In this document: positions 1,923 through 27,720 of the stretch, piece after piece
Position numbering within the stretch: position 1 is the first letter of the stretch
How the letters are laid out: each line of letters begins with the position of its first letter
DNA from: a plasmid
Reading direction: 5' to 3' (one strand)
NCBI RefSeq assembly: GCF_053078305.1
Contig: NZ_CP166878.1
Length of the DNA stretch: 32,715 nucleotides
The notes under the pieces: model-generated
Told to the model about the DNA's origin: nothing
The model's input: only the letters and a program-made list of their open reading frames with translations
The model's database searches: none
Program-made: the position numbers and the translations under genes

Positions 1923-2987
1923 ATGGATAAAAAGACAAAAACATATCCTTTTGGTGACATTGAGTTTTTTGACCAGTTAGAGGAACATGCATGGGACCAG
2001 ATTCATGATGGTATGCTACCAATTATGGATTTGTATCTTGATCCGACAGTAACCGATATATTTATAAACAGGTATGACAATATATATACATCTGTCAATG
2101 GCAAGTATGTAAAGACCGACAGTTCCTTTTCCAGTGAACGGGCACTTAAAGCCTGGATTGATCAAATCGCAACGGTGTTGAGGCAGCCATTTTCAACGTC
2201 AGGAAACTATAAATATGGTGATGTCATTGAGCCTGTACTTGATGCCCGATTTCCCGATGGTTCCCGGTTGATGTGTACAGACCCGGTGATTTCACCGCAG
2301 GGTTCTACGGTAAGTCTTCGTAAAGTACCTAAGCAAATACTGGAAGAAAAAGATTTTATAAATTCCGGTATGTTGACGAGAGATATTCTTGATTATCTCA
2401 TTAGTGTTATACAAAAACGGAAAAATTTTATTGTTGCTGGTAATACTGGTTCTGGCAAAACATCACTTTTACGCTTGCTCGCCAGGTATATTGATACGAT
2501 GGAGCGTGTTATCACCGCCGAAGACACTCAAGAACTTCATATACACAGGTATTTTCCGTTAGGGATTGCTCTGGAAGCTGCACATCGTAAAGATGTGAAT
2601 GCGGATCTTCCTTCTCTGGTTCACCTGACTATGCGTGGTAATCCCGATCGTGTATGGGTTGGGGAGGTAAGAACGGCAGAGGCTATAGCTGCTTATTACA
2701 TGGTTCTGGCAAGTGGAACTATAGGTAATGCTACAACTCTGCACTCCGTTACCCCTATGGGGGCAATACGCAAAATGACCTGGCTTATGTCAAGCTATCT
2801 CAGTATCGATTTTCAGATAGCTCAGGATTTAATTATGTCAGAGGTTGACGTGATTATTCAGTGCCGGAGAACATCAAAGCATGGAAGAAGAATTACAGAT
2901 ATCGTCGAAATACGTGAAGGGAAAATTGTTCCTATATTCAAGTTTGATGAAGAGCAAGAAGTACATGTCAGGTTTGACAAAAAATGA
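1923..2987 (+). CDS. virB11: VirB11-family secretion ATPase
   Basis: 354-aa ORF; Walker A GNTGSGKTS, downstream ITAEDTQEL and conserved His-box region typical of VirB11/TrbB traffic ATPases; ATG at 1923. Confidence 0.9.
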   Translation: MDKKTKTYPFGDIEFFDQLEEHAWDQIHDGMLPIMDLYLDPTVTDIFINRYDNIYTSVNGKYVKTDSSFSSERALKAWIDQIATVLRQPFSTSGNYKYGDVIEPVLDARFPDGSRLMCTDPVISPQGSTVSLRKVPKQILEEKDFINSGMLTRDILDYLISVIQKRKNFIVAGNTGSGKTSLLRLLARYIDTMERVITAEDTQELHIHRYFPLGIALEAAHRKDVNADLPSLVHLTMRGNPDRVWVGEVRTAEAIAAYYMVLASGTIGNATTLHSVTPMGAIRKMTWLMSSYLSIDFQIAQDLIMSEVDVIIQCRRTSKHGRRITDIVEIREGKIVPIFKFDEEQEVHVRFDKK

Positions 2988-3000
2988 ACATTTAGCATTA

Positions 3001-3080
3001 TATGCTTATATGCTTATATGCTTATATGCTTATATGCTTATATGCTTATATGCTTATATGCTTATATGCTTATATGCTTA
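3001..3080. repeat. Perfect tandem octamer microsatellite (TATGCTTA x10)
   Basis: Ten uninterrupted head-to-tail copies of TATGCTTA directly readable in sequence, starting 14 bp after the virB11 stop. Confidence 0.95.
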
Positions 3081-3105
3081 TATCATTGTGTTTGTGTGAA
3101 ATATT

Positions 3106-3299
3106 GCTGTAACATCGACGGTCTACGACCACCTACCACCTGAATAGCTGTAGGTTCCGTGCGGTCAGGCTTGGCAGGGGGCTGACGCGGTTCCTGGCGA
3201 CATGAAACTCCCTGGTTAGGGGTATCGGCGCGACCTGGCATCTGTGACTCTATAAAGCCATTTTTCGCGCCTTCCATGCCGCTAAAGCGGCATATTCCA
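3106..3299 (+). repeat. 194-bp repeat family, copy 1 (upstream of ccdA)
   Basis: Near-identical to 18900-19093 and ~90% identical to 3962-4155; begins GCTGTAACATCGACGGTCTACG and ends with hairpin ATGCCGC-TAAA-GCGGCAT then ATTCCA. Confidence 0.9.
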
Positions 3300-3366: not shown

Positions 3367-3612
3367 ATGAGAACAAATGTGGCAGTAAAAAAACGTAGTA
3401 TAAACGTATACTTAAATGCAGGGTTACTTGAAGAAGCAAAAGATCTTGATCTGAATGTTTCTGCTATCTCTAACAAAGCTCTCGAAAAAGCGGTAAGGGA
3501 GCGTAAGCGTGAACGCTGGATAGAAGAAAACCGTGCTGGCATTGAGGCATTAAACCGTTTTGTAGAAGATACCGGGATTTTTTCAGATGATGAAAATTTT
3601 GGGGTAATTTAG
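3367..3612 (+). CDS. ccdA: CcdA-family antitoxin
   Basis: Recognisable similarity to F-plasmid CcdA (VNISxxxxxxxxEARRxRAERWxxEN...FADENRDW pattern: NVSAISNKALEKAVRERKRERWIEENRAGIEALNRFVEDTGIFSDDENFG); ATG 3367 preceded by G-rich RBS; stop overlaps ccdB start. Confidence 0.85.
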   Translation: MRTNVAVKKRSINVYLNAGLLEEAKDLDLNVSAISNKALEKAVRERKRERWIEENRAGIEALNRFVEDTGIFSDDENFGVI

Positions 3613-3929
3613 TGAAACAATTTTCTGTCTACAAGAACAAATCGCGAAATAAACAGGCGTACCCCTATTTTATTGATATACAGGCAGAGATGCTTGCACA
3701 CCTTAACACCCGGTTGGTGATGCCTTTAACGCCAAAAGATAATTCAAACTCGCAGGTAAAGACGTTAACGCCAGTAATAAACATCAACCAGGTAGATTAT
3801 GTGGTTCTGACTACTATGATAACGACAACGGATGCAAAAAATCTGAACTCTGATAATGTCGTTATGGATGCTTCATATTTACGAGATCAACTGGTTTCTG
3901 CAATTGACATGATGATTCTGGGTATTTAA
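3612..3929 (+). CDS. ccdB: CcdB-family gyrase-poison toxin
   Basis: GTG start overlapping the ccdA stop by 1 nt; protein begins MKQFSVYKNKSRNKQAYPYFIDIQ and ends MMILGI, matching the CcdB family pattern ([21 protein letters not shown] ... LMFWGI). Confidence 0.85.
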   Translation: MKQFSVYKNKSRNKQAYPYFIDIQAEMLAHLNTRLVMPLTPKDNSNSQVKTLTPVININQVDYVVLTTMITTTDAKNLNSDNVVMDASYLRDQLVSAIDMMILGI

Positions 3930-5508: not shown

Positions 5509-8109
5509 ATGGGGCAGAGCTATAACGAACATCTGAATCTGGCAGGCATCGAACAACATTCCGGGCAGGTGTATACCTATACTGGAGGTGCTTTTGGTGC
5601 TATTGAACTGACAGGTGTTGATCCAACGGGTGTTACCCCTTCTCAGGGTAGCCGTATTTCTTTATTACTTCGTAATATCGTTCAGTTACTGCCCCTTTCT
5701 GTCACACTGACTCAGTATTATATCCATAATGACGGCGTTAAGATCCGGCTGACAGGGCGTGATAATCAACGCAGTCAGTTACTTTCTATGCGTCGCCAGG
5801 CATATCTTAATAAATGTCGTAATTTAAATGCCTCAAGAATTATATGGACGCTGGATGTTCACCCGGAAGAGAATATTAATCGCCTGGCATCTGCCGAGTT
5901 TTTAAAGAATCTTTTTAACAGCATGTTTGATGACACAGCCAGACGTAAAGTCAGGCTGGCACTGTCAAATCGCGAATCGTTTATCATTGAGCGTCAGGCA
6001 TTTGAAAAACAGTGCCTGTTGCTGAAAGAAACATTACGCGATCTGGACTTACGCCTTTCTTTTATTTCAGAAGATAACAGGATTCTTGATTCAGAAGGGA
6101 TCTGGCGATTACAGAAGTTCCTTGCAACATTTAATCACCATTGGCTGGCTCCACGCCGTAAGGTCACTGTACCCAATGATATGTGGGATTGTCTGGCGAT
6201 TGAAGGTGACGATATCGAGGCCATTACCTGGCGTGGCGTTGATATGTTGAAGATCCAGGGGGTACGGCCTGTTTATGTTCGCCTGGCCAGTGTGTTGAAA
6301 ATAGGCGATGAATCTGTACCGGAATGTGCCTGGGCGCTGACAAATGGCAGACCAGTTTTACAGCGGGGTAACTACGTTTACTTCATGCGGTTCACTCCCG
6401 CCAGTGCCTTTAAGAAGTCACTGATGATCAGCGGGAAAGAAAACGAACTTGTCAGGACTCAAATCAGTTTGAGCGATTTAATGACTGACAGTACGAGCAA
6501 AGATATTCTCGATGAAAAATTGCGCAGAAATTCACATCTGATGAAGATGCGCGAAGAACTGGAGAATATTTCATATTCAGATGAGCGCCTGGGGATCTGC
6601 CAGGCCGGGATTGCTGTATTTAATACAGATCCCGATAAATTACTTGAGACTTGTGCGGATATTAACCGTAGTGTCTCTCAGACCATGCAAGTTGTATGGG
6701 AGACGGTAGCACAACTGGATGCTTACAAGGTTATGCAACCAGCCTACTCACGCAATACATTTCGTGCATTACAGCTTAACGCATCTCAGATGGGGGCGGC
6801 ATCCTTGTTCTTTAAATCCCATCCAGGTATTCCTGAATGGGAGCTAAATGGACGCATGGAGGAAGCCTTCTATATTCTTGAATCAGATGATGGCGTGCCG
6901 TTTTTCTTTACGCCAAAAGTTAAAGAAAAGCTACTGCTTCTTGGTAATGGGGCGACCCGTGGCGGCAAGACTTTTATGAAAAACTGTATTGCCAGCCATT
7001 TTATTAAATTCGGTGGTCTGTATAACTGTCTGGATATCGATCCTGGCTCTATCCCAATGGCTAATTTCTTTGGGGATGATGGGGCAGCATTTACCCTTGA
7101 TAGCGATTTTCAGTGTGGTTTTAACATGTTCAGTATGGCGCAAAGCAAGGATGACAGGGTATTTCTTGCGCATCTTATAGAGCAGTTAAAAGCAATGGCA
7201 GCAGAAAATGACAGTGAGCAGGATAAATATTTAACGCCTGATGAACTTGAAAATATAACAGTGTGTGCGAGTGATCTTCTTGTACAAAAATTTTCGCCGA
7301 ATGAGGGGCGTTTAAGCTCAATCACGTTGTCAACGCTGGTTTCTAAGTGTGGTCAGAGCGTTAAACGCAAGTTAGCGCCATTTATTAGTAATGGTATTTA
7401 TGGACGTTTATTTGATAACAAAGAGGACGCGATTGGTGTTCTTGATAAGCCGGTAGCTGTTTACAACCTTTCAGGTGTGAAAGATAACCATAATCTTGCG
7501 CGGCTTGTGCACCGTGAAATCTTCTTTCGTGTCGTTCGTTTGTTTGAATCACCGGAATATCGCACGATACCAAAGTTTTTTGAAATAGATGAGGCACAGT
7601 ACACCCTGTCTGTACCACATGCCGCAGAGTTCGCTACACAGAAAGCCCGAACCTGGTTTAAGCATGGTGGGGGTATGGGATTCTGGACTCAGAACCCGGA
7701 GCACTATTCATCACTGGATGAGTGGACTACGTTACGTTCCTCGGCGTCGGTGTTTATCTTTATGCCGGATAATGAGGCAACAGTTAAAGCATTCCATGAT
7801 GCTTATGGCTTCGATGAAGAAGAAGTGAATATTATTCGCAGCCTTAAGGTAAAACAGCAGTCGTATATAAAGATCCCGGACATGCAGATTGCAAAAGTGG
7901 TGAATCTGTTTGTTGAGGCTGAACAGTATGCTGTTTGTACATCAACGTCTAATGAAGCAGCCCTGGCAGCGGAAATATGGAAACGTGAATCAGATCCCGA
8001 TGTTGCAGTGCGACAGATTGTAGAAGGTCTGATAACGAAGTGTAATAAGGACTTGATCCCAACGCCTACAGAGACTGAAAAGGATAAAACGGAGGGGTTT
8101 TTCTTATGA
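5509..8109 (+). CDS. virB4: VirB4-family T4SS ATPase
   Basis: 866-aa ORF, Walker A GNGATRGGKT, size and position typical of VirB4/TrbE; RBS GAGGTGA. Confidence 0.9.
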   Translation: MGQSYNEHLNLAGIEQHSGQVYTYTGGAFGAIELTGVDPTGVTPSQGSRISLLLRNIVQLLPLSVTLTQYYIHNDGVKIRLTGRDNQRSQLLSMRRQAYLNKCRNLNASRIIWTLDVHPEENINRLASAEFLKNLFNSMFDDTARRKVRLALSNRESFIIERQAFEKQCLLLKETLRDLDLRLSFISEDNRILDSEGIWRLQKFLATFNHHWLAPRRKVTVPNDMWDCLAIEGDDIEAITWRGVDMLKIQGVRPVYVRLASVLKIGDESVPECAWALTNGRPVLQRGNYVYFMRFTPASAFKKSLMISGKENELVRTQISLSDLMTDSTSKDILDEKLRRNSHLMKMREELENISYSDERLGICQAGIAVFNTDPDKLLETCADINRSVSQTMQVVWETVAQLDAYKVMQPAYSRNTFRALQLNASQMGAASLFFKSHPGIPEWELNGRMEEAFYILESDDGVPFFFTPKVKEKLLLLGNGATRGGKTFMKNCIASHFIKFGGLYNCLDIDPGSIPMANFFGDDGAAFTLDSDFQCGFNMFSMAQSKDDRVFLAHLIEQLKAMAAENDSEQDKYLTPDELENITVCASDLLVQKFSPNEGRLSSITLSTLVSKCGQSVKRKLAPFISNGIYGRLFDNKEDAIGVLDKPVAVYNLSGVKDNHNLARLVHREIFFRVVRLFESPEYRTIPKFFEIDEAQYTLSVPHAAEFATQKARTWFKHGGGMGFWTQNPEHYSSLDEWTTLRSSASVFIFMPDNEATVKAFHDAYGFDEEEVNIIRSLKVKQQSYIKIPDMQIAKVVNLFVEAEQYAVCTSTSNEAALAAEIWKRESDPDVAVRQIVEGLITKCNKDLIPTPTETEKDKTEGFFL

Positions 8110-8924
8110 GAAAACAACTTGCAGTAGTCTTGTTTTCTGTAATGACAGGATTGATTACAACACCTGCTATTTCTGGCGTTCCTGTTGCGGATGCTGCTCA
8201 GATTCTTGGTCAGGCCAGGGCTATGATGCAGGATATCAAAAACTATAAAGAATATATGGAACAGACAATTCTCAATAATAAAGAATTGCTGGAAGCATAT
8301 AAGCAATACAACCAGATGCTTGAGGATTATAAGCAAATTTTACGTGAGGCCGAAGGGCTGAAAGATAAACTTTCATCGATTGACTATAAGAATTTTATGG
8401 ATGAAATAGCCCTTATCTCTAACCAGTTCGATCCCGTTTATGGCGGGGGGCGTATGGTTAAAAATACGGGTAATGCGCCGTGGGATAAAGCCTATGAGCG
8501 TAATTTGTTGCTTAATGGCTATGGGCTTACAAACGAAGAATATGCCGAAATGCTGGCAGCGATACCATATACGAGTGATGACCGCGAACGTGCCCGGCAG
8601 ATGTTTGAATATAGGCAGCGCAGGGTTGTTGAAGGGATTTCAAAAGATGCCTTTGTTGGTGAATTGCAAATACAATTAAAAAAGCAAGGAAAAACTCTAG
8701 GGGAATTACAGGAAAGACGTTTAAGGTTAGGTGATAACGATACGACAGCCTCTATCCAGTTTTTAGCTGAACAAAATGAACAACTGTTACAACAAATTCA
8801 GAGTTTACAGTTACAGCAAGCAGAGGCGATGAAATATAGTGGTCGTCTTGAGGATCACTATTTTAACAAGCGAGCGCAACAGGAAGAATTAAAGGCACGT
8901 CAGTTACAGAGGGCATGGCAATGA
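8106..8924 (+). CDS. VirB5-like secreted helical protein (minor pilus subunit candidate)
   Basis: Start overlaps virB4 stop (ATGA); signal peptide; helical/coiled-coil-rich 272 aa; positional inference. Confidence 0.5.
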   Translation: MRKQLAVVLFSVMTGLITTPAISGVPVADAAQILGQARAMMQDIKNYKEYMEQTILNNKELLEAYKQYNQMLEDYKQILREAEGLKDKLSSIDYKNFMDEIALISNQFDPVYGGGRMVKNTGNAPWDKAYERNLLLNGYGLTNEEYAEMLAAIPYTSDDRERARQMFEYRQRRVVEGISKDAFVGELQIQLKKQGKTLGELQERRLRLGDNDTTASIQFLAEQNEQLLQQIQSLQLQQAEAMKYSGRLEDHYFNKRAQQEELKARQLQRAWQ

Positions 8925-9388
8925 AAAAATATCTGATTCTTTTCTTCATGATGTTTTCAGCCTCGGCAATGGCTAAGATTGGCTATGTTGATGAGCATCA
9001 AAAGGAAGTTGACCTAAAAATTGACGCTCTGATTTCTAAATATGAAAAAGAATGTGAAGGTAAACGCAATAGTAATATGTGTAAATCCCAGGCATGGGAT
9101 AAGGCTCATTTTGAATATGAAGATGAATTTAGAGGCGAAGATAAATATAATCATAAGCATTATGATGGCCTGACAAAAGATCAGGCAGTCGCGAAGTTAC
9201 ATGAACTTATTAAATTGCATAATATTGTTTCTAAAGATGAACGCAATCCTGAAAGTTGGCCTGGAAAATTAGACACACTAACTATTAATGGTGAGATTAA
9301 CTATATAGTTAGAAAACACTGGCCAGCATGGATTAATCCATGTGATAAGATTTGTGCGGAACTGTTACTTAGACAAATAGGTAAATGA
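8921..9388 (+). CDS. Secreted protein between virB5- and virB6-like genes (possible entry-exclusion protein)
   Basis: Signal peptide MKKYLILFFMMFSASAMA; the equivalent position holds eex in pKM101-type clusters; function is inferred only from position. Confidence 0.4.
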   Translation: MKKYLILFFMMFSASAMAKIGYVDEHQKEVDLKIDALISKYEKECEGKRNSNMCKSQAWDKAHFEYEDEFRGEDKYNHKHYDGLTKDQAVAKLHELIKLHNIVSKDERNPESWPGKLDTLTINGEINYIVRKHWPAWINPCDKICAELLLRQIGK

Positions 9389-9429
9389 TGTAGCGTTTAA
9401 CAGGCTATATCTTTAATTTGGGGGCTATT

Positions 9430-10419
9430 ATGCTTCGAGGATTCTTTTTGTCTTTAATTAACAGACTCTTATTTGTAGTCCTGTTTTTATCTGTCTCATT
9501 TTATGCCAGTGCAGAAACAGCTATGCGCACAAACTTTCAGAATGGCGTAAGTGAGATGGTTAATAAAATACTAAATAGCCCGGATAGTGATTTACGTGTC
9601 TGGACTATTGCCGCATCAACTTTCCTGGCTGCGGTAACGGCATTCGTCTATTTCTGGCGGTTCGTGGAAAATGGTGGGGCGTTAGTTGATTTATTCACGC
9701 TTGCAATCATGTTTATGTTATCAATGTCATTGCTTGCTTCTTACTCAATGGTTGTTGATACTATCACAGGCGCTTTTTATGCGATATCAAATACACTACA
9801 GAAACTGGCGTTAGGTAATATTAAGCCGAGTTTTCTGCAAAATTTTGTAGAGGGCGTGTTAACAAAGGCTATTTCAGCACCATCGGTTGATATTTTTGAT
9901 GGCATGAATATGGTTGGCATGGCGCTCTTGTGGGAAATATGTTCTGCTATTTTGTCTGTTGCTATATATCTTGCTGATGTTTGGATTGATGTTGGGACAG
10001 CAATAGCAAAAATTACAGGTGTTATGTTTATTCCTTTTTTGGTTGCGCCAGCAACAAGAGGAATTTTTGATGGATGGTTTAAATTCTATATTGGATGGGG
10101 GCTTGCAGCGGTTGTACTTAAAATAACATCTATTGTGGTAATGATAATGATCAGGGCATCAATTAACTCTGCGGGTAGTTTCCAGGGCGCTGGCGATGTT
10201 ATCGCGTCAGATGGTACTGTTAATGGCGTTCTTAATATAACAGCTAATAATATCAGCTTGTTACGTGATATTTGTGCATATTCTGTAATCGCTGCAATTA
10301 TGGTGTTCAGTTGTTTTATATTTGCGTACATGATTGGTTCTGGTGTCGGCTCTGCAAGTCAGGGTTTGAATAATATGGCAGTAAAACTAGCCAAGAAAGC
10401 GGCTAAAGCATTATTGTAA
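9430..10419 (+). CDS. virB6: VirB6-like polytopic inner-membrane protein
   Basis: About 330 aa with multiple hydrophobic helices; ATG 9430 after GGGGG RBS (ORF track starts at TTG 9418). Confidence 0.65.
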   Translation: MLRGFFLSLINRLLFVVLFLSVSFYASAETAMRTNFQNGVSEMVNKILNSPDSDLRVWTIAASTFLAAVTAFVYFWRFVENGGALVDLFTLAIMFMLSMSLLASYSMVVDTITGAFYAISNTLQKLALGNIKPSFLQNFVEGVLTKAISAPSVDIFDGMNMVGMALLWEICSAILSVAIYLADVWIDVGTAIAKITGVMFIPFLVAPATRGIFDGWFKFYIGWGLAAVVLKITSIVVMIMIRASINSAGSFQGAGDVIASDGTVNGVLNITANNISLLRDICAYSVIAAIMVFSCFIFAYMIGSGVGSASQGLNNMAVKLAKKAAKALL

Positions 10420-10428
10420 GGTGAACGT

Positions 10429-11148
10429 ATGCTGCTTGAAAAAAAAGAAGTCGAAAAAGTAAATCGCACAGCCTTTAAGGATCGTGTTGGTGAACTAAAA
10501 AAAGACAGAAATTTGTTTTTCTGGATTGCCTTGCTTCTTGCCGGGACGACGATATATCAGTCATATTCTGTTCAGGAGGCAATAGAGAAAAGCCAGAATA
10601 CTACAGAAGTAGTATGGGTGAAATTATTGCCTGATGGTTCACATAAAATATCACAATTTACGCCAGACAATGAGCAGCCTATATATACACCAACAGTGAA
10701 CTCATTGCTGTCAAAGTATATGCAGAAGCGCTATGGACAGTTAAAAGAGACTATAGAACGGGATTATGCAGAAGCGGCAGTATTTATGTCTCCTGTACTT
10801 ACAGGGGAGTTTGCCGATCCCAAAGGGTTTAATGTCGCTCAGAAAGTTGTGGATATTCAGGCCGATATGGCAGCAAAAAGGATTGATATAGAAATAAAAG
10901 ATATTGACCATTATGACGCGATAGAAGGTCAGTTTGATGGTGATGTCAAACCTGTAATTCGAACGCTTGTTACTTATCAGGAGATAACAAGGGATTATCA
11001 GGGTAAAGAAATTTCATCGGTTCAACAAATGAGGCGTCTTCAATGGACGTTGTTACAACGTAACGAACTTAGTAAACAATCGCTGGACTGGCTTAACATC
11101 AATCCGCTGGGAATCCAGATTATTGATGATAAATCCGTACAACAGTAA
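10429..11148 (+). CDS. virB8: VirB8-like bitopic protein
   Basis: 239 aa, single N-terminal TM (LFFWIALLLAGTTIY), periplasmic domain; position after the virB6-like gene. Confidence 0.65.
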   Translation: MLLEKKEVEKVNRTAFKDRVGELKKDRNLFFWIALLLAGTTIYQSYSVQEAIEKSQNTTEVVWVKLLPDGSHKISQFTPDNEQPIYTPTVNSLLSKYMQKRYGQLKETIERDYAEAAVFMSPVLTGEFADPKGFNVAQKVVDIQADMAAKRIDIEIKDIDHYDAIEGQFDGDVKPVIRTLVTYQEITRDYQGKEISSVQQMRRLQWTLLQRNELSKQSLDWLNINPLGIQIIDDKSVQQ

Positions 11149-11160
11149 AGGAACTTAATC

Positions 11161-11994
11161 ATGTTAGCGAAAAGAACTCTCTTATTTTCTGGAGTCCTGG
11201 CTGTTGTCATGACTACGTTCAGTGCAACAGCACAGCAATGTAGAGTGGTTAACTGGCGGCCTGGAACAATAGTTAAAGTGCAGTCCGCTTTATATCTGGG
11301 AACTCGTATAGAACTGCCGGAAGGCTCAATGTTATTAACGAAAGAACCCTTTTCTTCTAATGCGCTATGGGCCAGCACGGGAGCCGCAAATCAGGTCATG
11401 ATTCAGCCTACCAGCGAAGAGCCGGAAGGGCTGAAAACGATGGTAACAGTATTTATGACTAACGGGCAGACGCTGGATATTGAGGCTGTTCGGGTATCTC
11501 AGAACCAGAATCAACAGTGTGTTCAGATCCGTGGTGCAGGTATGCGTTCCGCAGACAGAAGTGCATTAAACACGGCTTACAGTATGGGAGCATCCGGGGC
11601 TGATGTGGCTCGTTTACAGAATGAAGTGAATACATTGCGGAGTAACAGAGAAAGCGAAGTCAAAAACGCAGTTCTTGAAGCTCTTCGTCGATACCGATAT
11701 TTCATTTATACCCGTTATAACTGGACGACAGGTAAAGGTTTTAGCGGAAAGAATATGATCTCTGATGTTTATGATGACGGGCGTTTTACTTATATCCGTA
11801 TCGCAAAACCGAATCGTGGATTACTTGCGGTACATGCAGATGTCGGAGGAAAACCAGCGGTTATTCCTACCAAGTACGACGATGCATATGCCATTTATCA
11901 TATGTCAGGGATATATCCCAAATTTACCCTTACCCTGGATGGCGTAAAGCTGGAAGTCAGCCGTGCGGATAATGCGACTGATGGGGAGAGCTAA
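11161..11994 (+). CDS. virB9: VirB9-like outer-membrane channel subunit
   Basis: Signal peptide, 277 aa, C-terminal beta-rich region; order B8-B9-B10. Confidence 0.7.
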   Translation: MLAKRTLLFSGVLAVVMTTFSATAQQCRVVNWRPGTIVKVQSALYLGTRIELPEGSMLLTKEPFSSNALWASTGAANQVMIQPTSEEPEGLKTMVTVFMTNGQTLDIEAVRVSQNQNQQCVQIRGAGMRSADRSALNTAYSMGASGADVARLQNEVNTLRSNRESEVKNAVLEALRRYRYFIYTRYNWTTGKGFSGKNMISDVYDDGRFTYIRIAKPNRGLLAVHADVGGKPAVIPTKYDDAYAIYHMSGIYPKFTLTLDGVKLEVSRADNATDGES

Positions 11995-11996
11995 TT

Positions 11997-13403
11997 ATGG
12001 AAGAACGTCAGGAGAAAGTAGAAGAAAAACCAGCTACTTACCGTAAAAAAATACAGTATTACGCTTTTGGTACTTTTGGTGTGATCCTGGTAATTCTTTT
12101 TATCAATATGGTGATAAGTATTGCCTCAAGGAACGAGGAAGAACCAAAGGAAAATGCGAAACAGGAAACTGCCAGCACTGCGCCAAATACAACGGAAAAG
12201 TTTAATGCGTTACTGAAAAACAGTGGTGCACGTCCTTCTGCCTCCGTTAATCAGGCTAATACGGTTGGAAATAAGGATAGTGCCAGTAATGGAAATCCGA
12301 ATAGTGAAACAGATAAAAAACCTGTTCACCCTTACAGCCGGGAAAAAGAGGCGTCTCAGGAGAGGGGGGCGAGAGCAAGTGATGCGGGGTCACCTGATGA
12401 AATCAGGGCACGCTTTAAGGCTGATGAGATTAACCGAGCACTGCGTGCCAGGTCAGATAAAACAAATTTTGACAGCACTAAAAATACGGTTGCGGGTAGT
12501 GGTAATGCATATGCCCCGGCAGCATCGTTTACCGGAAACCGGACTAATGCGCAGCGTATCAGCGATATAAACGCAGAGCAGAATGGATTGCAGGAACGTA
12601 TCCAAATGATGGAATCAAAAGTTCGTGCTGATGAAGCCGCTTTGCCTGGACGACTGGAAGAAGCCCGGATACGTGGGGAACAGCAATTTGCAGAAGCCCG
12701 ACAGGGTGGAGCAGGAAGTAACGCGACATCGGTAACTAAGGGGAGTACCCAGAGCGTACCGTCCGGTGTTGTGGGATATACAGCCAGTAATCCTTATGGG
12801 GCAAGTGTTGATGGAATGATGAAGTTGCCAGTAGGTACGGTCCTGAATGCCATTACCACATTTACGGCTATTTCTGATTATTCCGGCGGCTCAATGAAGG
12901 CCATGCTTACGCATGATATCTATGATGCGACGCATAGCTACATTCTTGCGCCTAAAGGAAGTGAGTTCGTTATCAGGGTCGTTAAAGCCTCCCAGGTAAA
13001 CGAAATCCTTCAAAGCCGTATTGGATTCCAGGTTACATGGCTTGTATTGCCTGATGGTAACAGGGTCGATTTTAAAACCTCGTCGTCTCTTGACCGAATG
13101 GGGACTCCGGCGGTTGAAGGCGATGAGGTGGACAGGCATTTGCTCGCTCAGTTTCTTGGCGTAGCGGCCTATGCCCTTGTGGGGACGAAAACCAGCTACG
13201 AAGGCTCAGGTGATAGTAACGAGAGTTTTGCCGGGAATTTTGGCGAAGGCGCTCGTACTCAGGCAGGAAATATCGCTCAAAAATACCTCCAGGTTGTGCC
13301 TACAACAACGTTACATGCGGGAGCACCGATCAGGGTCTTTACCGAAGATGAGATATACATGAAGCCGTGGAGAAATATTTATGAAACGGATTATACGGGC
13401 TGA
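11997..13403 (+). CDS. virB10: VirB10-like protein
   Basis: 468 aa, N-terminal TM, Pro/Glu/Ala-rich linker, C-terminal beta-barrel-like domain. Confidence 0.75.
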   Translation: MEERQEKVEEKPATYRKKIQYYAFGTFGVILVILFINMVISIASRNEEEPKENAKQETASTAPNTTEKFNALLKNSGARPSASVNQANTVGNKDSASNGNPNSETDKKPVHPYSREKEASQERGARASDAGSPDEIRARFKADEINRALRARSDKTNFDSTKNTVAGSGNAYAPAASFTGNRTNAQRISDINAEQNGLQERIQMMESKVRADEAALPGRLEEARIRGEQQFAEARQGGAGSNATSVTKGSTQSVPSGVVGYTASNPYGASVDGMMKLPVGTVLNAITTFTAISDYSGGSMKAMLTHDIYDATHSYILAPKGSEFVIRVVKASQVNEILQSRIGFQVTWLVLPDGNRVDFKTSSSLDRMGTPAVEGDEVDRHLLAQFLGVAAYALVGTKTSYEGSGDSNESFAGNFGEGARTQAGNIAQKYLQVVPTTTLHAGAPIRVFTEDEIYMKPWRNIYETDYTG

Positions 13404-17649: not shown

Positions 17650-17710
17650 CAACCCCCTGATATCTCTCTTAGAGCTTTTGCGGGGCCAAAGAAGATAATC
17701 AGGGGGTCCA
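17650..17710 (+). promoter_or_regulatory. Long stem-loop in repA leader (candidate antisense-RNA target)
   Basis: Arms CCCCCTGATATCTCTCTT / AAGAAGATAATCAGGGGG around an 18-nt loop containing GCCAA (one base off the conserved IncFII/IncB loop hexamer); location upstream of leader peptide and repA. Confidence 0.45.
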
Positions 17711-17743
17711 AAGCAGGCTTTTGCCTGTAAAGGATTATAGCAA

Positions 17744-17800
17744 ATGCATTTTTCAATACAAGACTACTGCCCGGCAATAAGTGCGGGCGGTGGTGGCTGA
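17744..17800 (+). CDS. Leader peptide overlapping repA start (translational coupling candidate)
   Basis: 18-codon ORF MHFSIQDYCPAISAGGGG whose stop lies 17 nt inside repA, the arrangement seen for tap/repY-type leader peptides. Confidence 0.45.
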   Translation: MHFSIQDYCPAISAGGGG

Positions 17801-18506
17801 AAAGAACAATTCCTTAATCCCCCGCATATCGCCGTCAGGGGTGGCCAAACAAAGTCCATGCTATAACGTTGTGTCGCGTAAGCGACGCCGTTTCCTCAAT
17901 CGCTGGATTAAATCGCTGGCGACGGTCGCTGGGCGTGTCAAAATCAAAAACGAACTCCGCCGCCGTATCCGGCATAACCGATATTGGGTTAATGAGGCTA
18001 ACAAGTTTGGCATAGAGGCACTTTGCGAACTGATGTTAGCTATCCTGGATGATCTCGATTTACGCTCCTGGGAAACCAGGCATAACCTCGAAACACTGGC
18101 AGAACGTGCCGGACTGGTGACACGCAGTGACGCGGGGCGTAAATCTATTTCCCGTGCCAGTAGGGGATGTGATCGCCTGGTCTGGTTGAATGCGATCATT
18201 ACAGATAAAGCGCCGTTTAACCCCTATGATGCACGGTGTGCCTGTAAACACATTGAAGTAACCGAAGACTTCTTTGCCATACTCGGCATTCCGTTAAAAC
18301 TGGTTTATCGGGAACGTGCCAGGCTGTTAAAGGCAGATCCTAATGAAATGATTTACTCCGGGGATGCCAGACTGATAGCTATCAGAGTCCAGAACTGGAC
18401 ACGGAAAGCGGCAGCCGGATTAGCCCGGATGAAAGCGAAACGCGACGCAGCTCGACAACGCAAAAAAGAATATTACGCTCACCCACCTACCCCTATTCCG
18501 GTCTGA
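17781..18506 (+). CDS. repA: IncFII-family replication initiator RepA
   Basis: Segment LETLAERAGLVTRSDAGRKSISRASRGCDRLVWLNAIIT aligns with the RepA1 core of R100-type proteins (SITTLAIECGLATESAAGKLSITRATRALTFLSELGLIT); GTG start right after an in-frame stop. Confidence 0.75.
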   Translation: MRAVVAEKNNSLIPRISPSGVAKQSPCYNVVSRKRRRFLNRWIKSLATVAGRVKIKNELRRRIRHNRYWVNEANKFGIEALCELMLAILDDLDLRSWETRHNLETLAERAGLVTRSDAGRKSISRASRGCDRLVWLNAIITDKAPFNPYDARCACKHIEVTEDFFAILGIPLKLVYRERARLLKADPNEMIYSGDARLIAIRVQNWTRKAAAGLARMKAKRDAARQRKKEYYAHPPTPIPV

Positions 18507-26343: not shown

Positions 26344-26370
26344 GAAAAGGGGCTTTTCGCCCCTTTTGAA
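26344..26370. terminator. Bidirectional terminator between convergent genes
   Basis: AAAAGGGGC-TTTTC-GCCCCTTTTG: hairpin with A/T runs on both sides. Confidence 0.75.
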
Positions 26371-26458
26371 CCAAATCTTAAAGGCCACTCGCTTTCCGGT
26401 AGGGGGCAACATCCAGGCTTAACCTTCCGTCCTCCACAACATCAGGCCATGGAGGATT

Positions 26459-26737
26459 TCAACCCTTTATAGACGAAGTGAAGTCAGACCACTGTTCAAT
26501 CCTGAATGCTCTGATATCCCTGACTGAATTTGGGAACCATTCAAGAGCTTTTAATGCGTTCATAGCCTGAAAAAGGTTTGCCATATTTTCATCGCTATTT
26601 GTGTACAGGCTTCCCTGGATTCGCTCAAATCCGTACCTTTTAAGGGTCGAACTTATATCGTTGTAAGCCTGTGACACGCCTTTCGGATGGTGTTTTTCTG
26701 TATCTGCAACGGTTAAATCAAATGATATTGCGTACAT
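26459..26737 (-). CDS. vapD: VapD-family endoribonuclease (Cas2-like fold)
   Basis: MYAISFDL N-terminus, QGSLYTN and SVRDIRAF motifs match VapD proteins as remembered. Confidence 0.85.
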   Translation of the reverse strand: MYAISFDLTVADTEKHHPKGVSQAYNDISSTLKRYGFERIQGSLYTNSDENMANLFQAMNALKALEWFPNSVRDIRAFRIEQWSDFTSSIKG

Positions 26738-26740
26738 AAC

Positions 26741-27031
26741 TTACTCTGCATCAGGATCTTGTAATAGTTTTGAAAGTTTGTACAACTCTTTCTCACCTGT
26801 CTGAACCAGTATAATGTTGACAAGAATATCACCATCAGGTAGTTCTTGGGCTGGCTCTCCTACCTCGTAAGGAATACCAAGCAGCCCGAATGTCTTAATC
26901 GTACCTGTTGGAATTTGCACTGTATTCATTGTTTTCGCTCCGATTTCCAGCCTCATCTTATCAGTCATAGCTTTGATAATAGCCTGACTGTCAGGTGACT
27001 GGGCCGCAATTACTTCTTCTAATGTTCTCAT
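26741..27031 (-). CDS. Hypothetical protein immediately upstream of vapD (possible cognate partner)
   Basis: 96 aa, 3-bp gap to vapD in the same operon; no sequence-level assignment possible. Confidence 0.5.
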   Translation of the reverse strand: MRTLEEVIAAQSPDSQAIIKAMTDKMRLEIGAKTMNTVQIPTGTIKTFGLLGIPYEVGEPAQELPDGDILVNIILVQTGEKELYKLSKLLQDPDAE

Positions 27032-27049
27032 CTGTTGATGCCCAATTTT

Positions 27050-27349
27050 TTACAGGTGGAAAGCCATACGCTTGCCTGTAGGCAATGTCACGTCCAGGCT
27101 TAACTCGCCGCCCAAAGCTTTTACATAACGTTTAAGCGTCGATATTCTCGGATCGTTGTCAGTTTGCTCCATCCTGGCAACTGATGGTTGTTTTACTCCC
27201 ATCATTGTAGCCAGTTCGGTTTGGGATATGTTCAGTTCATCACGTAAAGCACTAAGTGCGAGCTGAATGCTGGCTTTTTCAACTCGGTCGGCTACGTGCG
27301 CCTGCATTTCAGGACTCTCTTTAGCCAGTAGTTCTCTGTAGGTAGCCAT
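27050..27349 (-). CDS. XRE-family helix-turn-helix protein (HigA-like antitoxin/regulator candidate)
   Basis: HTH segment NISQTELATMMGVKQPSVARME and C-terminal LKRYVKALGGEL; start set at the ATG preceded by GGAGAAA RBS (ORF track extends to 27400). Confidence 0.65.
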   Translation of the reverse strand: MATYRELLAKESPEMQAHVADRVEKASIQLALSALRDELNISQTELATMMGVKQPSVARMEQTDNDPRISTLKRYVKALGGELSLDVTLPTGKRMAFHL

Positions 27350-27720
27350 GTTATTTCTCCAGTTTTGCAAGATGTTCACGGTATTCATTATATACTGCAT
27401 TATAACGAATACACTATAATTTCCAGAAGAACAGGGCTATTTAACATAATGGACGTTATCAGCACCACCGGATCACAGTTCGTTGTCAGATCTGAAAAAT
27501 CCGCTCAAAAGATCATGTTTTCCTGGGCGTTTTTCGTCGTTTTTTATGTTGCTTATTTGTTAATAAAATCTCGTTTCTTGTTTTGGCTGAATTTGGATGT
27601 GAAAGCCTTATATTTGCAAGTTATCCGGTGAAGGGAGGTAGCCGAGACTGAGGATTGATTGTTTTGTACAAGTTCTAATGCATAATGTGTACATATAGTA
27701 GCGTTAGCATAGGGCGTAGT

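Follow-up and report, generated by a model that had tools for sequence, protein, structure and literature searches.

A canonical VapXD pair nested in a disrupted higA gene behind an orphan HigA: a probable mosaic of two type II toxin-antitoxin modules on E. coli plasmids

Three co-oriented open reading frames (ORFs) lie on the minus strand within positions 26459-27349 of the E. coli plasmid window (the whole 32,715-nt stretch of DNA that was analysed), and this locus is very probably a mosaic of two toxin-antitoxin (TA) modules of type II, with a canonical VapXD pair nested in a dead higA gene behind an orphan HigA whose toxin has been deleted. The ORFs encode a helix-turn-helix (HTH) protein of 99 aa (27349..27050), a protein of 96 aa (27031..26741) and VapD (26737..26459), with intergenic gaps of 18 nt (99-aa to 96-aa ORF) and 3 nt (96-aa ORF to vapD; 26741 vs 26737). 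This layout agrees with that given in an earlier sequence-only reading of the locus, which had also correctly recognized the first protein as an HTH regulator and the last as VapD. Of 5426 complete E. coli genomes, 8 had the identical three-gene block, which recurs in many E. coli plasmids of ~30 kb, and this recurrence excludes a chance pattern of ORFs. The commonest variant of the 96-aa protein was found in 1437 index blocks of assemblies, in every case on ~30-kb ParA/ParG/YjeJ plasmids; the toxin-deleted three-gene form is a successful one.

The toxin gene vapD (26459..26737, minus strand) encodes 92 aa and is, by homology, a Cas2-like endoribonuclease. The protein matched H. influenzae VapD (PDB 6zn8_A; 3.2e-39) with 63 of 91 residues identical (69%), and 6ZI0 and an H. 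pylori VapD fusion (3ui3; 4.3e-21) were also matched in the PDB search. Cas2 models were matched as well (Pfam CRISPR_Cas2 PF09827, 4.3e-7; PADLOC Cas2, 1.5e-15). The reading as a CRISPR Cas2 was rejected given the absence of a CRISPR array and of cas genes and the 69% identity to VapD. Asp7 is present (MYAISFD..., aligned to 6zn8_A), and a D7N mutant of a VapD homologue is inactive (PMC11980593). The score against the NCBIfam VapD equivalog NF041506 fell short of the cut-off (41.6 vs 100 bits), so the RefSeq name is merely "virulence factor"; this missed cut-off counts for less than the much stronger direct match to VapD of H. influenzae.

The 96-aa protein, held to be unassignable in the sequence-only reading, contains VapX. 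Residues 37-96 matched Pfam DUF5397 (PF17375; 1e-26) over model positions 4-64 of 64, and the same residues matched H. influenzae VapX (6zn8_C; 2e-21) with 39 of 59 residues identical (66%). NCBIfam and PADLOC returned 0 matches for the 96-aa protein and its identity was settled by Pfam and PDB; the profile and structure comparison with VapX proposed in that reading returned a standard VapX. VapX is an SH3-fold protein (PMC11980593) that enters the catalytic cleft formed by two VapD molecules, resulting in a VapD2-VapX unit (PMC8138530); it has the SH3 fold only and no DNA-binding domain. VapD would act as a dimeric Cas2-like nuclease toxin whose catalytic cleft is plugged by VapX, as in 6ZN8, and on a plasmid vapXD would most likely serve as an addiction or stabilization module. 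The pair resembles the H. influenzae system (HI0451/HI0450; 6ZN8) in the position of vapX directly upstream of vapD, in the identity of both proteins (VapX 66%, VapD 69%), in Asp7 of VapD and, if translation starts at M35 as is probable, in a small single-domain VapX (62 aa). Unlike the H. influenzae pair, the window copy is plasmid-borne in E. coli, is without the upstream region that once belonged to it and lies within a disrupted higA, its vapX ORF is lengthened to 96 aa by an in-frame relic of 34 codons, and its toxicity and neutralization are predicted.

The first gene of the block (27050..27349, minus strand) encodes a HigA-type antitoxin/repressor of 99 aa, with an N-terminal segment of ~30 residues and an XRE-type HTH at residues ~30-85. 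The protein matched Pfam HTH_3 (5.5e-11) and HTH_37 (2.4e-5), and its nearest solved relatives were HigA chains (6af3_B, 7ewc_A and 6lty_A; 3e-6 to 7e-5). The ATG at 27349 is preceded by GGAG and agrees with all annotations. A 116-aa ORF (27400..27050) was rejected as the HTH gene because its start lies inside the promoter/operator and is unsupported by relatives, and an apparent truncation to 85 aa in two loci (L029, L036) was a gene-caller choice only, the sequences being intact.

Loci that lack vapXD and carry the HTH gene (90-97% identity) were recovered by megablast searches of plasmids and complete E. coli genomes. In plasmid pEC2547-KPC-2 (L001) and in the chromosome of strain 2013C-3033 (L021) the gene is located directly downstream of one encoding a 116-aa "RelE/ParE family toxin"; these toxin-bearing relatives are 90-93% identical in nucleotide sequence and the L001 HTH protein is 94% identical in amino-acid sequence. 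The L001 toxin is a Gp49 protein (Pfam PF05973; 3.9e-22) and the gene order is that of an inverted higBA. The assignment of the toxin to a family rests on Pfam Gp49 and on weak matches to TIGR02683, as the PDB search found no solved relative of it. The Gp49 HigBA pair of pEC2547-KPC-2 (WP_094283547/WP_094283546) and the window have in common the antitoxin, the promoter, the palindrome described below and a V. cholerae HigBA2-like architecture of an N-terminal segment of ~30 residues followed by a C-terminal HTH, and they differ in that the window toxin is deleted (330 bp) and the antitoxin an orphan.

The extent of this deletion could be placed by blastn, in which window 26944-27386 corresponded to L001 2501-2931 and window 27382-27625 to L001 3262-3505. 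L001 positions 2932-3261 are missing from the window, which indicates a 330-bp deletion covering the toxin ribosome binding site (RBS), the start codon and all but the last 12 codons. In blastn and a three-way alignment the junction (27381..27387, minus strand) coincides with a microhomology of GAATA (vs L001) or TGAATAC (vs L021), and on the upstream side the break falls exactly where the right arm of the predicted operator has its outer end; the toxin appears to have been lost by microhomology-mediated deletion. What is left of the toxin gene (27351..27389, minus strand) is its last 12 codons and the stop, containing the GGAG RBS of the HTH gene, and in a tblastn search residues 105-116 of the L001 toxin matched window 27389-27354 with 83% identity. 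No other copy of a Gp49-type toxin was found anywhere in the window. By descent the HTH gene belongs to such a module, and it is an orphan because the upstream toxin is missing here and present in L001, L021 and a 78-kb E. coli plasmid (L008), and its product would be a HigA-type antitoxin and autorepressor that lost its Gp49/HigB (RelE/ParE-superfamily) partner through the 330-bp deletion.

Orphan antitoxins and TA decay are already well known, and orphan antitoxins and decayed TA loci have been surveyed in Enterobacteriaceae (PMC7192599, PMC10790755). The window locus is like these in that the toxin is lost and the autoregulated antitoxin retained; it is unlike them in that the deletion can be traced to its endpoints and its microhomology, in that intact precursor alleles are identifiable, and in that the orphan would end up driving a second, unrelated TA pair.

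The HTH ORF, its RBS and the operator were intact in 15 of 15 sister sequences. Amino-acid changes among the sisters affected residues 13, 18, 21, 22 and 95, and the core (residues 30-85) showed one synonymous change only. Two reports on V. cholerae HigA2 assign toxin neutralization to its N-terminal disordered region (PMC11006873, PMC5416850); homology of the orphan HigA to VcHigA2 was undetected in the PDB search at E<=0.01. The pattern of changes would fit retained DNA binding together with relaxed toxin binding, in numbers too small for a claim. Persistence of the HTH ORF and operator in very many assemblies could reflect selection for function rather than accident. The orphan HigA might have been kept as an anti-addiction (immunity) factor against HigB of competing plasmids or of chromosomal higBA, independently of vapXD, as close relatives of this higBA that still have their toxin are in circulation among the plasmids and chromosomes of E. 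coli, the orphan is both intact and widespread, and orphan antitoxins and anti-addiction have been discussed in the literature (PMC7354431, PMC7192599). We consider this unlikely, since the sister changes, few as they are, are concentrated in the N-terminal part, where contact with the toxin is expected, which fits relaxed rather than maintained binding; such a role is compatible with the mosaic of two modules and does not exclude it.

That mosaic involves a second higA gene, of which relics flank vapXD on either side. In L002 (CP088743), a plasmid with a sister backbone that is 98.9% identical to the window in the flanks, the position is occupied by another higBA allele, which is intact and lies between yjeJ and the downstream genes shared with the window. 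The 5' relic (26930..27031, minus strand; 34 codons in frame with vapX) matched L002 2784-2877 at 89% in blastn, with window 27037..26944 aligning to the first 88 nt of L002 higA. The 3' relic of the same gene (26371..26422, minus strand) is frameshifted (...LSLDV..PTGKR..), as window 26422..26371 aligned in blastn to the last ~50 nt of L002 higA with a 2-nt gap; it is also found downstream of vapD in L008. The relic N-terminus reads MRTLEEVIAAQSP(D/E)SQAIIKAM..., compared to MRTLEEVIAAQSPESQAIIKAMADEMILETG... in L002 HigA, and it also matched three further HigA proteins (P0044, P0047, P0048) in a database search. A search with the 96-aa ORF likewise returned HTH_37/HTH_3 proteins matching the first 38% of the query.

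The relics on both sides indicate that a vapXD cassette of ~520 bp (26423-26943) replaced the middle of the second higA, and the 34 codons remaining at the 5' end of the dead gene would be read in frame into vapX to give the apparent chimeric ORF of 96 aa. The fusion of two modules offered as an alternative in the sequence-only reading was therefore essentially right, with the twist that the toxin of the higBA module has been deleted and that vapXD lies inside the wreck of a second higA.

Elsewhere, VapXD is found mostly without an HTH gene at its side. Pairs of this kind occur on Citrobacter pMobC, on Providencia and Actinobacillus plasmids and on chromosomes of Pasteurellaceae and of Neisseriaceae (Stenoxybacter, Neisseria MAG), and a profile scan of genome contigs with a VapX alignment yielded 8 loci, which show the bipartite norm and are too few for statistics. 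Plasmid pJD1 of N. gonorrhoeae is a partial exception, with an "HTH domain-containing protein" encoded two genes upstream of vapX and in line with rep; this protein had no NCBIfam match. A four-gene form, consisting of a Gp49 toxin, an HTH_37 antitoxin, VapX preceded by the relic, and VapD, was carried by L008 and by chromosomes of ~4 Mb (L023, L024). Its vapXD DNA is 94% identical to that of the window, whereas its HigA protein is 46% identical to the window HigA and 86% identical to the L002 allele. The same vapXD thus follows a HigA of 46% identity with an intact toxin, which argues against an allele-specific partnership. Across the taxa examined, no regulator was co-conserved with VapXD among lineages, and the upstream HigA allele was exchangeable.

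These comparisons suggest that the insertion of vapXD into higA is old relative to these lineages, that recombination later put another higBA upstream of it, and that the window lineage then lost the toxin. The steps of assembly (insertion of vapXD within higA, exchange of the HigA allele and loss of the toxin gene at an arm of the operator) appear to be still legible in the DNA. The locus offers a clean, datable case of TA decay and recombination, in which a toxin would have been lost through a microhomology deletion bordering on its own operator, leaving an orphan autorepressor, and a second TA pair would have been parachuted into a dead antitoxin gene. It is not a new kind of system; two known modules are combined. 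In full-text literature searches, neither this composite nor the occurrence of DUF5397 on plasmids of E. coli was found described.

Upstream of the HTH gene, a relaxed sigma-70 scan identified a promoter-like site (27399..27425, minus strand; TGGAAA-15 nt-TATAAT or CTGGAA-16 nt-TATAAT), and a second TATAAT is located at 27392..27387. By alignment with L001 and L021, the site is homologous to the promoter region of the intact higBA. Both -10-like boxes are overlain by a palindrome (27381..27412; GTATTCGTTATA-N8-TATAATGAATAC) with 12-nt arms that are 92% complementary, which is conserved in the toxin-bearing L001 and L021 and is a probable HigA operator. The toxin deletion would have left the higBA promoter, the predicted operator and the RBS of the HTH gene intact. 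At the other end of the block, RNA folding revealed a GC-rich hairpin (26345..26367; AAAAGGGGC-N5-GCCCCTTTT) that is also found downstream of the intact higA in L002 and is a probable bidirectional terminator common to the vapD operon and the convergent yjeJ. A stricter consensus scan gave no promoter on the minus strand and missed the terminator hairpin as well, so the promoter calls, which come from the relaxed scan with RNA folding used for the hairpin, are weak evidence.

Neither the consensus nor the relaxed scan gave a credible promoter or terminator between the start of the HTH gene and vapX. The upstream sequence that came with the vapXD cassette amounts to no more than 14 nt. VapX genes elsewhere have promoters of the TTGACA/TTTACA...TAAAAA/TAAAAT type within ~70 nt upstream, and in the window this ~70-nt region is replaced by the higA relic. 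As vapXD is without a promoter of its own and no terminator precedes it, its transcription is probably due to read-through that begins at what was once the higBA promoter. Transcription would start at this putatively HigA-repressed promoter and end at the hairpin at 26345-26367, and the orphan HigA would incidentally set the expression of vapXD, giving an accidental three-gene operon. The sequence-only reading had also considered that the HTH gene might be unrelated and separately transcribed; it is unrelated in origin, but no promoter or terminator was found between it and vapX, so that co-transcription is likely.

Three-component TA operons with a separate regulator are known from PaaR2-PaaA2-ParE2 and omega-epsilon-zeta. 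The window block is like these in its order of HTH regulator, antitoxin without DNA binding and toxin, and in its probable co-transcription; it is unlike them in that the regulator is the antitoxin of another module, is not co-conserved and is a product of insertion and deletion. A tripartite toxin-antitoxin-regulator arrangement had been suggested in the sequence-only reading, and as an evolved system it is not supported, since the middle protein is a standard VapX, VapXD elsewhere is mostly without an HTH gene and the kin of the HTH protein have a Gp49/HigB toxin of their own. The HTH protein is very probably not a dedicated partner of VapXD.

A selected three-component system, in which the HTH protein has been domesticated as a dedicated regulator of vapXD in the manner of regulator-antitoxin-toxin operons, would account for a promoterless vapXD that follows the HTH gene with no terminator between them, for an HTH ORF, RBS and operator that are intact in 15 sisters with all amino-acid changes outside the HTH core, for a three-gene form that is very common, and for a VapX of SH3 fold only in which a DNA-binding domain is absent. 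It is nevertheless quite improbable, because the HTH protein shares 94% identity with a HigA located behind its own toxin, VapXD elsewhere mostly occurs without an adjacent HTH gene, the same vapXD also follows a HigA allele of 46% identity whose toxin is intact, and an insertion into higA together with the deletion accounts for the juxtaposition. A narrower proposal is tentative and still less likely than not, namely that the toxin-less HigA may have taken over transcriptional control of a promoterless VapXD, making the block a naturally occurring, recently assembled three-component TA system. If it is true that the orphan HigA controls vapXD, three-component TA operons can arise by accident, which is of specialist and modest interest.

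The mosaic of two modules also bears on where vapX begins. The antitoxin proper (26741..26929, minus strand) would comprise 62 aa from M35 plus the stop, with a GGAG RBS 8 nt upstream. VapX proteins of 61-70 aa whose start is the equivalent of M35 were found in Citrobacter, Providencia, Actinobacillus, Neisseria, Testudinibacter, Muribacter, [Haemophilus] felis and Stenoxybacter. The GGAG before the M35 ATG (26929) is conserved, and the ATG at 27031 is without a Shine-Dalgarno sequence. Between the window and the independent L008 copy there were 2 synonymous and 8 non-synonymous substitutions in the extension compared to 11 and 2 in VapX proper (Fisher p=0.003), the counts in this comparison being small. 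Among 15 sister plasmids, the density of variable sites was 6.9% in the extension (codons 1-34) and highest in the downstream higA relic region (8.9%), compared to 2.2% in vapX proper and 1.1% in vapD. Codons 1-34 change in the manner of non-coding DNA, and VapX proper is under purifying selection. The functional VapX probably starts at M35 with a length of 62 aa, and the 96-aa gene model would be 34 codons too long. The 18-bp gap between the HTH gene and the 96-aa ORF, on which the sequence-only reading drew, stands between the ORFs, but the true distance from the HTH gene to vapX would be ~120 nt, since vapX probably starts at the ATG at 26929.

Translation from the upstream ATG at 27031 may also occur, because the 96-aa ORF was open in every variant seen (>25) and is annotated at 96 aa in RefSeq. 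It is very improbable that the 96-aa ORF is a chimeric antitoxin in which the HigA N-terminal segment and VapX neutralize a HigB-type toxin and VapD, respectively: the fusion is in frame, open in all variants and 96 aa in several RefSeq records, it coexists with a HigB-type toxin in the four-gene form, and the V. cholerae HigA2 precedent (PMC11006873, PMC5416850) has an N-terminal disordered region neutralizing the toxin, but the extension is near-neutral (2 synonymous and 8 non-synonymous substitutions; site density 6.9% vs 2.2%), the 27031 ATG has no Shine-Dalgarno sequence compared to a conserved GGAG before M35, 62-aa forms are the rule elsewhere and homology of the HigA to VcHigA2 was undetected.

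The PGAP annotation of the gene is inconsistent, with 62 aa in one record and 96 aa in several RefSeq records. For this very common E. coli plasmid locus the annotation can be corrected, as the "DUF5397 family protein" and the "virulence factor" are a VapXD pair.

On pEC2547-KPC-2, an IncN plasmid, the same 5' relic of a second higA as in the window (positions 2501-2594 of locus L001) was found behind an intact higBA pair, with vapXD absent behind it. Since this plasmid carries the relic without vapXD, the junction of higA with a higA 5' fragment is, as judged from sequence comparison, independent of the vapXD cassette. Further orphan copies of the window HigA allele were found at positions 1982-2239 of L009 (pMS20659) and in H79/H80, with 93% amino-acid identity, annotated as 85 aa and located on E. 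coli plasmids of approximately 100-137 kb, with neither a toxin nor vapXD nearby. The existence of these toxin-less copies on other E. coli plasmids suggests that toxin loss is recurrent in this higBA family.

In the window, a hairpin with an 11-bp stem (UCCUCCAUGGC...GUUGUGGAGGA; 26430-26456, minus strand) was found in the sequence directly 3' of the vapD stop codon, inside the 36-nt cassette-specific 3' sequence. VapX was also encountered elsewhere. A 62-aa E. coli homologue (P0030; 77% identity) is encoded at positions 3001-3189 of L025 (contig AAWUXZ010000044.1), and may be an orphan VapX because no vapD was called downstream, the gene being followed instead by a convergent hicAB pair. On the gonococcal cryptic plasmid pJD1 (L007, 1948-2432), vapXD is preceded, downstream of rep, by two co-oriented genes encoding an 81-aa hypothetical protein and an 80-aa protein annotated as 'HTH domain-containing protein', neither of which had a match in NCBIfam. 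pJD1 is possibly an independent case of an HTH gene within a vapXD-containing operon.

Two ORFs on the plus strand (approximately 3367-3612 and 3612-3929) correspond in position to genes that NZ_CP196494, a sister plasmid with 99.5% identity, has annotated as CcdA and CcdB, and constitute a putative third TA module of the window plasmid, assigned by position and annotation only. Correspondence with sister plasmid annotation also pointed to a CpaF-like ATPase (1923-2987, plus strand) and a set of type IV secretion genes of the VirB4/VirB8/VirB9/VirB10 type (5509-13403, plus strand). No relaxase was annotated, and the sister plasmids are typed as non-mobilizable in PLSDB. A PK-repBA pseudoknot (Rfam RF01089; 86.4 bits, E = 4e-18) was matched at 17651-17778 on the plus strand, directly 5' of an ORF (17781-18506), which indicates that replication of the plasmid is under antisense-RNA/pseudoknot control of the IncB/I-complex type.
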